A stretch of DNA of 64,000 nt from Octopus sinensis (taxonomy: Eukaryota), in the NCBI RefSeq assembly GCF_006345805.1, contig NC_042998.1, positions 67,580,001-67,644,000 on the forward strand, written 5' to 3'. Position numbers and translations under genes: made by a program. Below the pieces are notes generated by a model that did no database searches, was not told where the DNA came from, and saw only the letters and a program-made list of their open reading frames with translations. Each line of letters opens with the position of its first letter. The first letter of the stretch is position 1. Below, piece after piece: positions 4,025 through 58,651 of this stretch.

Positions 4025-4114
4025 CATTTGATCTTATTCTAAAATCATATTGTCATCAAAAAAGGGTTTGGCCGAGTTGTGAAATAAAAGAAAATACTTA
4101 TATAAACTCACAAC

Positions 4115-4534
4115 ATGGCCCATATTAATACTTGTATCTTACTGCTGTTTATTGCATTGAATTTATCAGCTATTGAAAGTCTCAACCAAGGAACACCACC
4201 GACAGTTAGTATGGCTGTATTAGTACCTGAGAGCCCTTTTAAGAAATCTCAACTCATTGGATATATTATACGCTCAATCAATCAATATCGACGCAAACAA
4301 CTGCCATTTAAACCAACCGGTTACCTACAGTCTATTAAATCTGGGAGTACTAAAGAAATACTGGATGCTTTTTGCAATGATTTCTTTCGGAACAATACCA
4401 TAGCCATAATGTATATTAACAACCAAGTCATATTACAAGGGGACCCCTCTGCGGGGAGTTATGTAACTCAGTTGGCGCACGCAGTTGGAATACCCGTCAT
4501 TTCCTGGAATCCCGATCGTACCATGGCCATTCAG
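4115..4534 (+). CDS. Nmdar2: First coding exon of an NMDA-type ionotropic glutamate receptor subunit 2 (GluN2/Nmdar2-like): signal peptide plus start of the amino-terminal domain
   Basis: ATG at 4115 and hydrophobic signal peptide (MAHINTCILLLFIALNLSAIES). Motifs 'ILDAFCNDFFRNNTIAIMYINN' and 'SYVTQLAHAVGIPVISWNPD' closely resemble the invertebrate NMDAR2 ATD (ILxxLCxEFL..VSAILY; YFLQLAGYLGIPVISWNAD, recalled). Strong phase-0 donor CAG|GTAAGT at 4534/4535 after 140 codons. Confidence 0.88.
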
Positions 4535-6229
4535 GTAAGTAATCAATTTTTAATCTCTTCCAATTAACGTTAACTTTGTTTTCAGATTTCCATTAGAAGT
4601 AATTCTAATTTAACAACTTGTCTAGCACACTTACCATCATTGAAATGACAGAATTACTTCTAAGAAAAGAAATTCTCTTATGTAATAACATTAGAATCGT
4701 ATTGTTTAAGAATAGTTATTATTTATCCGAAATATTAGAGAATCAATATTGGAGTTATTGTTGTGTAGAGTCGATAAATCCATGTTTTACTTCCTAACTT
4801 TATAGCACAAAATGTTTATTGGTTTCTCTTTGACGTTTTATTGATTCATAAAAAAGGGGCATCATTTGACAATTGATATATGAATAAATTTGAATAAACG
4901 GAATTGAATAAATCCTTGCAAGTGTAGACTGGGGTATCTATGAAGTAGTAAAAGAAAAAATATCAAGAAATTTTCTACCTAAATTTCGCACAATATAAAA
5001 ATCAATATATTTCTTTCTTCTGCCATGCAAGCATTATGTTATATTGCGAAGGAAGATGAAAATCAAAACAGCAAAAAGCAGATCATGATGAACGTTTTTT
5101 ATGACTAATTCTATTCGAAAGTTGACGTGTAACAGTAGTAGTACAAAAGTTGATTCGAGATACCATTTAACAAAAAAACAGTTGAGTGAAAAAAATATAT
5201 TTATCCGTCTGTTTACGTTTACTGACATTAGTTTTACAAAGGGAGAGCAAAGATTTTCAAGTTGATATTCGGTCTGAAATTCTCGACTCTCGTATGAAGA
5301 GAACTTTTATCTTGACCTCTTTCCCTAAATGACAAATAAAATATTCTACAACAAAGAGAGACTTCTTCGTAACGTAATTCTTTAGCGTCATATATTCTTG
5401 AATTCTATACTCGATGTATTTTTCAACGAATTTTCAACTTAGTTTTGTCTTGTAGAAGTTGCATCTAAATTTTAATGTCTCTTTCTGTAATTGTTCTCAT
5501 AATTCTCTCCTCTAAAGACTAATATTTCTTACTGATAGTTTTACATTTGTCATTCATCATATTGCAAATCACATGCGTGCGTGCACATACGGCTTGTGTA
5601 AATAATGTATTTTTGTTGTTATCTAGCATTCTCATTTTCATTACTGCTGTAAATTTCCATGTTTATTTTTCCAGTATGACAACACACCCCGCTGTCACTC
5701 TGGTCGTTTTAATCATTATCTCATGTGTCCCTATTGTGATTAACAGCTTTGTTCTTAGTGTTGTTCATTATTGTTCATTTAGTATTACAGCCATTGTTTC
5801 TGGTAATGCTGGAATATATTTGAACAAGTACTCTGCATACCTTTACTATTTGTATTTTTGTTTGCTCTGCTCCACAGGAGAAAGTTAGCTATCACAATCG
5901 TTATGGGAATCATAGCCATGCGGAAATCAATTTTTGCCTTTCAGGCACAAGCAAATAGCAATTAACAATTTTCTCTTCTGTTTGTTATAATTAAGCTCTC
6001 CTCCTATTTCTTGACAAAATAACTGCAGTATAATCATTTCCAACAATAACTGATGATTCAGAGCGTGATAATAATTATAACTATATTACTATACTACACG
6101 TAGTGAAATATAACTATAACACAGCGTATAATCACACAAGTGCTCCTTCAATACGCAGGTTGTTTTCTTTTTGCATTTTTATTCTGTTTTAGCACTATCA
6201 ACAACAGCAACATCATCCTCGACAAAACT

Positions 6230-53803: not shown

Positions 53804-54230
53804 TATATAATATAATTCGAGACAAAACCACTATTTTGCAAAACAAACAAGGAAAGACTTAATCAATACATAAAAAATTTTAATATAAAGAAAGAAACCG
53901 GCACTACAATCGTTTCATGTCTTCAATGACATTCGTCAGGTGGATTTTCGATCTCCTAATCTGTTTTAATTCATGACTTCATAAATTAAAACAGATTAGG
54001 AGATCGAAAATCCACCTGACGAATGTCATTGAAGACATGAAACGATTGTAGTGGCGGGTTTTTTCTTTATATTAAAAATTTTTATGTATTGATTAAGTCT
54101 TTCCTTGTTTGTTTGCAAAAATAGTGGTTTTGTCTCGAATTATATTATATAATATTTTACTATAAAATTGGATTTAATCCTAAATCTGATTTTTCCCTGT
54201 AAATTTGGATTTATTCCCTAATATTTATTA
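53804..54230. mobile_element. Head-to-head inverted duplication (~170-bp arms) of an HHR-bearing element; Penelope-like inverted structure
   Basis: 53804-53976 is the near-perfect reverse complement of 53979-54151. The + arm extends to ~54230. The structure is embedded in (TA)n. Confidence 0.85.
54012..54054 (+). ncRNA. Type I hammerhead ribozyme, intact (mirror copy at 53901-53943, minus)
   Basis: CCAC CUGACGA AUGUC-AUUGAA-GACAU GAAA CGAUUG UA GUGG. All core nucleotides are present, helix III ACGAUUGU is self-complementary with G-U pairs, and predicted cleavage is after 54050. Confidence 0.85.
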
Positions 54231-56639: not shown

Positions 56640-57155
56640 ATCGAGTTGGCAGAATGGTTCCTGCGCCGGACAAAATGCTTAGCAGCATTTCTTCCGACTT
56701 TATGTTCTGAGTTAAAATGCCACTGGAGTTGACTGAACCCTTCATCCTTTCGGGGTCGTTAAAATAAGTGTTAGTTGATCACTGGGATCACTATAATCGA
56801 CTTACCTGCTTCCTCAGAATTATTGGCCCTGTGCCAATATTTGTTTACCAAAAAACTGTGAGCTGGCAAAACCGTTCGACTTTACCTTTCATCCTTTAAG
56901 GGCCAATAAAATAAGTGCTAGTTGAGCACTGGAGTTGATGTCGTTGATTAAAACCACCCACAAGATTTCAGGCCTTGTGTCTTATAGTAGAAAGTAGTTC
57001 TTGGGACATTTTACTTTCCATGTCCAACTGCTACCCAAGTCGACTTTGCCTTAAATTCTTTAGGAGTCGATAAAATATGTAGCCGACAAGTACTGGGGTC
57101 GATGTAATTGCCCTTTCCCTTCCATCAAGGTCGCTGACCTTGTGCTAAAATTTCA
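56640..57155 (+). mobile_element. Cluster of three diverged SINE family B copies (another at ~57640-57850)
   Basis: Repeated CGAGTTGGCAGAA heads and CCTTTCATCCTTT..GTCGATAAAAT cores. Confidence 0.75.
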
Positions 57156-57170
57156 AATAATTATTTGTTT

Positions 57171-57622
57171 CAGTTCTATATTTAAGAGATGAGGAATTAT
57201 GTGCATTATTTACATTCAACGGATAATTGTCCTCATCTTGTTTGATGTTAACACAACAATTCGGCTGGTATAACCTCCAGTCTTCTTCAGGTGTCTTGGG
57301 GAAATACGTCATATGTCCACGGGCATATGGCGTAGTGGTTAAGAGCACAGGCTACTAACCCCAATATTCTGAGTTCGATTCCAAGCAGTGACCTGAACAA
57401 CAACAACAACAACAGAAATAATAATAATAATAATAATAATGATAATAATAATAATAATAATAATAACAACATCTAAAAATACCTTAGGAATACGAACCCA
57501 GGTTCGAAATTTCCACAAGACACCTGATGAAGGCTGGATGGTATATCAGCCGAAACGTCTTAACAACAAACAAGATGAGGACAAATACCCGGTGAATGTA
57601 AATAATGTAAATAATGCACAAT
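57171..57622 (+). mobile_element. tRNA-headed SINE with hammerhead-bearing 3' tail, preceded by an inverted copy of the tail
   Basis: A box TGGCGTAGTGG (57328-57338), B box GAGTTCGATTCC (57371-57382), (AAC/AAT)n linker, then CUGAUGA A GGCUG..CAGCC GAAAC (57524-57556). The inverted tail copy at 57171-57305 carries a degenerate HHR at 57250-57295. Confidence 0.8.
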
Positions 57623-58651
57623 TATTTGTTTATCGAACACTGCGAGTTGGCAAAATCATAAGAGCTTCAGAGAATTGCCTTGAAGTTACATATTCCGACA
57701 AGTTATGTTCAACGATCAAATTCGCCTGCGGTAACGTTTGCTTTTCATCATTCCAGTGTCGATAAAATGAAATACCAGTCTTGTATTCGAGCCGAACGTA
57801 TTGAGTAACTCGTCACCTCAAAATTGCGGCTGTTGTTTGAATCAGAAATCATTATTTCTTTACTTAATCAAGCTCGCCACCTTATTTCATAAGTGATATA
57901 ATGCCACCCCTTATTTTAACCATTAATATATTCCAACTTTAAGTACAGAACCACTTAGTAATTTCGAAGAAATATGATAGATTTTCATGTGAAACATCCT
58001 GTATTCAGTTTCAAATTTGAAAAACGATTAAATAGAAATATGAATTGCAAATAAACGATTAAAATTGTGGAATAAACTAACCGATAAATTAGTAATCATG
58101 CTTAAAAGCGAATTCACCAAAGTTCACAAGTGAGTGGAATAATGATTAGGCTATAATTGCAAACAAGCAAGTACATGATTAATGAATGGTAGTGATTATG
58201 AAAATATTAATTAAATACAGGCAATCGATAATCCCTAAACGTATTATTCAAACAGCCTCGGATTTTATGGACGTATACTCACCAAGGGAATACCGCTTAC
58301 TCTAAAGGATACGTTATTTGTGGGGCGATATATTAAGGTCTATTGTTTCATTATCGGTCAGTGTTTGTTCTTATCGAAACACAGATACAAGCCTATATAC
58401 GGGGAGCTGCGTAGTAAGACAAAGAGAAAACAATTGATATAATTGGATGTTATCTCCTACTTCGTAATTAGTGTATAGGTATTTTATGGCTATTAAAACA
58501 AAATCTTCTATTAATACGAAACGTATGGTAACACTTGATAACGACATTATATCAGAAGTAATATGATAGTATCATATGCATATAACTTAACAGAATGAGA
58601 TAAAATAAATCCAAGGTTGTGAATAGTTTGCAGAACATTTATAACGAAAAG

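Follow-up and report, generated by a model that had tools for sequence, protein, structure and literature searches.

A tRNA-like head in the pLTR of an autonomous octopus Penelope element: a likely Pol III-type promoter and a probable origin of SINE-shaped copies

The question raised by this locus is whether a repeat that looks like a tRNA-headed SINE with a hammerhead tail is a SINE at all. In the window, which is the whole 64-kb stretch of Octopus sinensis DNA analyzed here, a head with A- and B-box motifs is followed by a simple-repeat spacer and a hammerhead-containing tail, and preceded by a short fold-back and an inverted copy of the tail. All of these parts, including the (AAC/AAT)n spacer, were found at the positions given for them by a sequence-only reading, which had interpreted the whole as a chimeric SINE; only the right edge, placed by that reading at 57622, had to be moved to 57619, since the target-site duplication (TSD) follows directly. 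The locus is no separate SINE but a single insertion in which two short copies of an autonomous Penelope-type element's front end lie head to head (Table 1). The tRNA-like head in the pLTR of this element probably acts as the element's own promoter, of the Pol III type, and the running off of internally started reverse transcription would then produce the SINE-shaped copies.

Table 1. Parts of the insertion and its target site (window coordinates).
Feature	Position	Strand	Remark
Left TSD, 12 bp	57159..57170	+	12-bp direct repeat
Inverted 5'-truncated pLTR arm with one-sided extension of ~30 nt at its outer end	57171..57305	-	92% to positions 129-263 of the family-consensus unit
Minimal hammerhead of the inverted arm, damaged core	57250..57295	-	
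Fold-back stub of 14 nt with 2-nt loop	57305..57320	+	Commonest 5' junction type in the family
tRNA-like head, forming nt 1-76 of the PLE unit, with an A box (57328-57338) and a B box (57373-57381)	57321..57396	+	
(AAC/AAT/GAT)n spacer in the 5' leader	57397..57466	+	3-148 nt long among copies
Forward pLTR 'tail' without extension	57467..57619	+	First ~43 codons of the PLE ORF, from 57490
Minimal type I hammerhead remnant; core 57524-57530, GAAA 57552-57555	57519..57561	+	Recurrent 3-nt deletion at the predicted cut site
Right TSD, 12 bp	57620..57631	+	

That 57171-57619 is a single insertion follows from the 12-bp direct repeat, which encloses the entire structure; the repeated sequence has two matches in the 64-kb window, against 0.11 expected. 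The inverted and forward tails are 84% identical over 110 nt. In the fold-back at the junction (57305-57318, loop AC, 57321-57334), 12 of the 14 pairs are of the Watson-Crick type and the other two are G-T; the hairpin has a folding energy of -18.2 kcal/mol (z-score -4.8), and none of 200 shuffled sequences was equally stable. In the forward arm, the PLE start codon is mutated. Unrelated dispersed repeats flank the insertion (56690-57150 and 57716-57779); they include a 55-nt core present three times and match many other places in the window. Further from the insertion, the window contains a stop-free stretch at 4106-4567 (+) without a Pfam match, which we take by eye to resemble the first exon of a glutamate-receptor-type gene, and a perfect hairpin at 53933-54022, with arms of ~34 bp, that is matched by miRNA models below threshold only.

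The family is large and dominated by short copies. Searches of the 2.7-Gb genome with the tail and with the head each gave more than 1,000 candidates, and from these 40 were scored and 30 retrieved; duplicate loci were left out of the family counts, and the window's own locus was retained. In 75 evenly spaced 10-kb stretches (750 kb), eight clusters were found, or seven loci if two pieces of L165 are counted as one, which extrapolates to about 25,000 loci (95% range 10,000-52,000); none of these eight clusters contained ORF sequence. Tails diverge from their consensus by 5.5% on average, and about half of the short copies carry the extension. Inverted tails proved common when counted, with 42 head-to-head pairs among 128 arms, and the Penelope-style character proposed for the inverted junction was upheld. 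The accompanying expectation that TSDs would be absent was not: duplications of at least 9 bp were seen at 15/30 inverted loci, compared with 3% for swapped flanks, besides the 12-bp pair at the window insertion. No head-to-tail tandem of short hammerhead units was seen among the short copies of L002-L060 and L096-L170, all of which are single or in inverted pairs.

The autonomous parent was reached from the sequence upstream of the head, which is common to five head-selected loci and was used as a query to obtain 30 loci. In 28 of these 30 endonuclease (EN)-selected loci (three of them duplicates of L077, and one the query itself), the end of an EN-like ORF is followed by the head. The head, thus, sits in the autonomous element's own pLTR and is not part of a chimeric SINE standing apart from its partner, and the possibility that the tail is the 3' end of an ordinary LINE can be rejected. 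One locus, L091, retains a decayed version of the whole body, with a reverse transcriptase (RT) match (PF00078, E 1.3e-7) and a C-terminus that lies nearest to GIY-YIG clusters in a protein atlas (0.97; PF01541 on 27% of members); a Pfam search of the L091 segment gave no GIY-YIG match. In a search with the front end of the body, the same repeat was found to precede it, and the head was reached in four copies (L178, L183, L187 and L194), two of which start at the head (+4 and -6) while two run into the end of a previous unit. The majority-rule unit is 2,650 nt long, with a single ORF of 835 codons, the ATG of which lies inside the 'tail', ahead of the hammerhead; the order is head, spacer, ATG, hammerhead, RT, GIY-YIG, stop, about 33 nt, and the next head. 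Because the same repeat flanks the body on both sides and the ATG lies in the tail, the head, spacer and tail together form the pLTR, or front end, of an autonomous PLE. The prediction that the mobilizing enzyme would be a Penelope RT/GIY-YIG protein, and that an autonomous Penelope element sharing the tail would exist, is borne out.

The element has the features of an EN+ PLE: a single ORF with an RT and with a GIY-YIG-like C-terminal end, the same repeat on both sides of the body, a minimal hammerhead, an inverted 5'-truncated copy and a one-sided extension. It may be placed with Penelope/Poseidon, a placement judged only by eye from the missing Zn-finger-like linker, which is present in three other PLE families of the genome. 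Structural (PDB) searches gave only weak RT matches, and protein searches gave seven relatives at 56-68%, without DNA context. The three other families (L130:7387-7929, L150:1260-1748 and L161:9567-9920) are observed alongside; two of them are young, with copies 96-98% identical and open frames of 774-776 codons, and in the rebuilt parts of all three neither an A/B-box head nor a standard hammerhead core was matched. Within the EN region, RNA reads show a 45-nt skip with GT..AG ends at L063:1655-1701 (21-26 reads per run), which may reflect the splicing of a host transcript through a copy.

The head itself is tRNA-like rather than a tRNA. It has textbook A- and B-box motifs, and in the consensus the boxes occupy head positions 8-18 (A) and 53-61 (B). 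They are better conserved than the remaining head sequence (variation of 4.8% vs 7.4% at non-CpG positions, P 0.005). The head does not fold as a tRNA (fold z-score +1.1), a default ARAGORN run found no tRNA in it, and the family consensus gave an ARAGORN match only at ps70. Rfam searches of the whole window and of two short stretches returned no tRNA and no hammerhead, only microsatellite-driven miRNA matches and noise. Comparison of the head consensus with genomic tRNAs of six sampled isotypes gave z-scores of 3-7, the best being tRNA-Arg(TCT) with 7.4, and the parent tRNA was not found among these six isotypes. The head also contains a short upstream ATG. In L091 and its relatives, the element's own sequence shortly before the head (~20 nt) looks like a decayed copy of the head start folded back, as though the present unit had come from an old fold-back junction.

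The 5' ends of the copies gather at the head. Among tail-selected head-bearing arms, 9/27 end within the head, 18/27 at -24..+9 and none upstream; the corresponding counts are 3/6, 3/6 and none for the random sample, and 1/35, 28/35 and 6/35 for head-selected arms. Arms that reach the start of the head stop at -24..+9 in 21/21 tail-selected or random cases and in 28/34 head-selected cases, or 49/55 in total, against an expected stop rate of 9.6% per 34-base window (ORF truncation of 0.003 per base, 26 copies); this is a strong excess, although paired arms are not independent. In RNA reads, depth drops about three- to four-fold at the head start, and the top loose end is the fold-back at -7; loose ends at the fold-back axis number 491, 377 and 388 reads in three RNA runs, which are expression-weighted and the source organism of which may differ from this octopus. 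In the strand test on these three runs, first mates were about equal on both strands, and the runs read as unstranded and fragmented, with no discrete starts. An A/B-box promoter, as in tRNA genes, would start RNA at just this point, and it seems rather probable that the head is the transcription start. Most letters of the fold-back loop correspond to bases that the element itself has upstream, or to the complement of these, which places the likely RNA start a few bases ahead of +1.

The sense strand of the 2.65-kb unit provides a weak indication of Pol III, in that it contains no TTTT run, against 2.9-4.6 expected (P 0.027, 0.005 and 0.004), whereas the ORFs of the three control PLE families of the same genome, which are about 30% identical to the element and have a different domain linker, contain 7, 5 and 10. 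With an earlier, incomplete consensus, the absence gave P 0.13 in a codon shuffle and 0.09-0.21 under Markov nulls, and GGGG runs are also absent from the sense strand.

The pile-up at the head needs no promoter, because the dominant end lies on a natural hairpin. It could also be explained by an ordinary Pol II-driven Penelope element that once captured a piece of a tRNA or SINE, with the ends collecting there through hairpin-favored fold-back or annealing, an explanation considered unlikely but the best of the alternatives. It accounts for the fact that fold-back at the hairpin axis is the most frequent type of junction, that a stub or fold-back is present in 29 of 51 non-PLE junctions, and that a second hairpin in the head (+17) also gathers head-to-head junctions (L009, L012 and L026), and it is in keeping with the Pol II-like character of the two PLE promoters studied, as described in the available portions of PMC2377424 and PMC8557442. 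It sits less well with the 22/51 junctions without a clear stub (by a crude classifier), with the hairpin at the head start of the intact element, which has only two 5-bp helices, and with a head in which the boxes are better kept than the remainder, in an element free of TTTT.

At the other end, the reads of the three RNA runs mark two 3' boundaries 34 nt apart. The extension is present in one arm in 29 of the 42 head-to-head pairs, in both arms in 12 (the aligner over-extends) and in neither in one. A one-sided 'tail' is known for PLEs (PMC8557442), and, for an element of the green anole, RT was found in vitro to start internally at two sites and to need template RNA beyond them (PMC11167929, as far as the accessible portions of both papers go). 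The two 3' ends and the one-sided extension match this PLE tail, for which the two internal RT start sites provide an in vitro explanation. In a comparison made to see whether both arms were copied from one template, the two arms of a pair agree in subfamily markers above chance (28/36, P 0.002, and 28/33, P 0.0002), with 8/36 pairs disagreeing; variants common to both arms amount to 6.4%, against 4.3% in permutations (P 0.065).

It could also be supposed that the short copies form a true SINE, whose own head drives Pol III transcription and which the PLE protein copies in trans. Short copies dominate, have intact boxes and TSDs, lack a terminator and carry the extension in about half the cases, all of which would suit a SINE. 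The comparison with ORF-linked copies points the other way: in a tree of 40 short and 21 ORF-linked arms the two kinds are mixed (15 changes vs 17.6 in shuffled trees, 52/500 as low), and no position separates them at P <0.012, uncorrected, with head-selected loci left out. The 61-row tree is star-like and weakly resolved (three starred branches of 58), so that the short copies appear to have no private lineage on a poorly resolved tree, and a weak SINE sub-lineage is conceivable. The unit has the A/B-box head of a SINE2, but it is not a non-coding unit sharing only its 3' tail with a partner, as a SINE2 would be, because the autonomous element contains the entire unit, together with the head, and has its start codon within it. 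Furthermore, the anole element needs template that continues past the RT start sites, which is where solo short copies end. A true SINE is, thus, judged improbable. An accidental nesting of a Penelope stub with an unrelated tRNA SINE can be dismissed, given that 90 of the 103 arms with a head have the tail after it, a consistent linkage that the sequence-only reading had anticipated, and that one TSD surrounds the whole.

The preferred reading, in which the pLTR bears its own Pol III-type promoter, can be set out as follows. RNA would start about 5-10 nt before the head, and reverse transcription would likely begin inside this RNA, a few hundred bases downstream of the head. The protein would nick AT-rich DNA and prime two cDNAs from two internal sites, as the anole element does in vitro. 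Most cDNAs would run off at the head, yielding SINE-shaped copies without a SINE lineage, and their ends would fold back, or anneal at the hairpin around the first base of the head, and be joined as an inverted pair. Short copies would mostly be dead ends. Copies bearing the ORF would require read-through from one unit to the next, which a TTTT-free strand would permit for Pol III. Transcription of the element from end to end by Pol III is possible but doubtful, and translation would be difficult from a Pol III RNA that has no cap and carries a short upstream ATG in the head. 

The hammerhead of the family is of the minimal PLE type, with an intact core in 86 of 116 motif matches. In the forward hammerhead of the window, 3 nt are missing at the predicted cut site and no stem I is formed; in the inverted one, GAAAC is altered, and, judging from these changes, both look damaged. 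The 3-nt deletion (window 57556-57561) is the commonest indel of the tail, in 26 of 144 covering matches, or 30/144 if those with a neighboring change are counted; eleven similar microhomology sites in the tail have 0-4 deletions each. It occurs in both subfamilies (9/40 and 19/70) and independently in the two arms of an insertion, with one arm deleted in 17 cases, both in 1 and neither in 18. It could be the scar of ribozyme cleavage followed by re-joining; the deletion takes out exactly one codon, in frame, and tolerated master variants would, therefore, also account for it. A template jump between different RNAs at the cut site was not supported, as flanking markers stay linked (12/14 deleted arms and 41/48 intact arms), and a pile-up of 5' ends at the cut site was unconvincing, tail positions 91-100 holding only five arms and the other 10-nt bins 1-7. 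The most far-reaching combination, an autonomous coding retrotransposon transcribed by Pol III end to end from an internal tRNA-type promoter, free of TTTT, with an internal RT start giving tens of thousands of SINE-shaped copies and a ribozyme-cleavage scar in the 3-nt loss, is offered tentatively, as a possible reading that is less likely than not.

The thousands of copies found here mark one 5' boundary, two 3' boundaries and a ribozyme cut site, which opens the promoter, the RT starts and the cleavage to separate tests and bears on how PLEs are transcribed and on why they leave inverted stubs. Should the coding RNA be made by Pol III, a SINE-type promoter would be driving a protein-coding retroelement, and there would be a direct path by which an autonomous element gives rise to a SINE. 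Some repeats listed as 'SINEs' in libraries for such genomes may, moreover, be PLE ends. If the Pol III reading is false, the element is an ordinary PLE with a captured piece of tRNA.

Several components of this system are already known: inverted pLTR insertions, minimal hammerheads, short pLTR-derived elements, and the Pol III hammerhead SINE-like repeats of schistosomes. Full-text literature searches and the available part of a recent octopus repeat annotation turned up no PLE described as having a tRNA-type head in its pLTR, a scope beyond which subscription papers, Repbase, Dfam or supplements may hold an entry. The comparisons that follow draw on the accessible portions of the papers cited. 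The octopus element shares with the EN+ Penelope/Poseidon PLEs (Poseidon_Ac from the green anole, PMC11167929; the insertion scheme of Craig et al., 2021, PMC8557442) a single RT and C-terminal GIY-YIG ORF starting in the pLTR near the hammerhead, at which the anole Poseidon ORF likewise begins (PMC11167929), as well as partial tandems, an inverted 5'-truncated copy, an extension of 30-40 bp at one end and AT-rich targets; it differs in a pLTR that opens with a tRNA-like A/B-box head followed by an (AAT)n leader, such a head being absent from the descriptions consulted, in 5' ends that pile up at this head and in a sense strand without TTTT. Its hammerhead has the short stem I, longer stem II, missing loop 3 and palindromic stem III (dimer type) of the minimal hammerheads found in metazoan PLEs (Cervera and de la Pena, 2014, PMC4209133), for which opposite-strand pairs 100-700 bp apart are mentioned and in the accessible text of which the word 'tRNA' does not occur; about one-fifth of the octopus copies differ in lacking 3 nt exactly at the predicted cut site.

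The view that a Pol III-driven, hammerhead-carrying class is rarely if ever described does not stand, given that a SINE-like class of this kind is known in schistosomes (PMC6765202). The schistosome Sm-alpha and Sj-alpha repeats (PMC6765202, PMC2770079) have in common with the octopus unit a tRNA-derived head, with apparent Pol III transcription in their case, a hammerhead, and the form of a short, high-copy repeat, but they are described as non-coding and in tandem, with no autonomous parent named, whereas the octopus unit is the front end of a coding PLE and occurs in inverted pairs. Non-LTR retrozymes (bioRxiv 10.64898/2026.07.22.740005) and the non-autonomous PLE derivative MRC1 (PMC8557442) are also short, pLTR-derived hammerhead sequences and proposed users of PLE enzymes. 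They form head-to-tail tandem arrays, whereas the short octopus copies, which have A and B boxes and apparently no lineage of their own, lie dispersed, singly or in inverted pairs.
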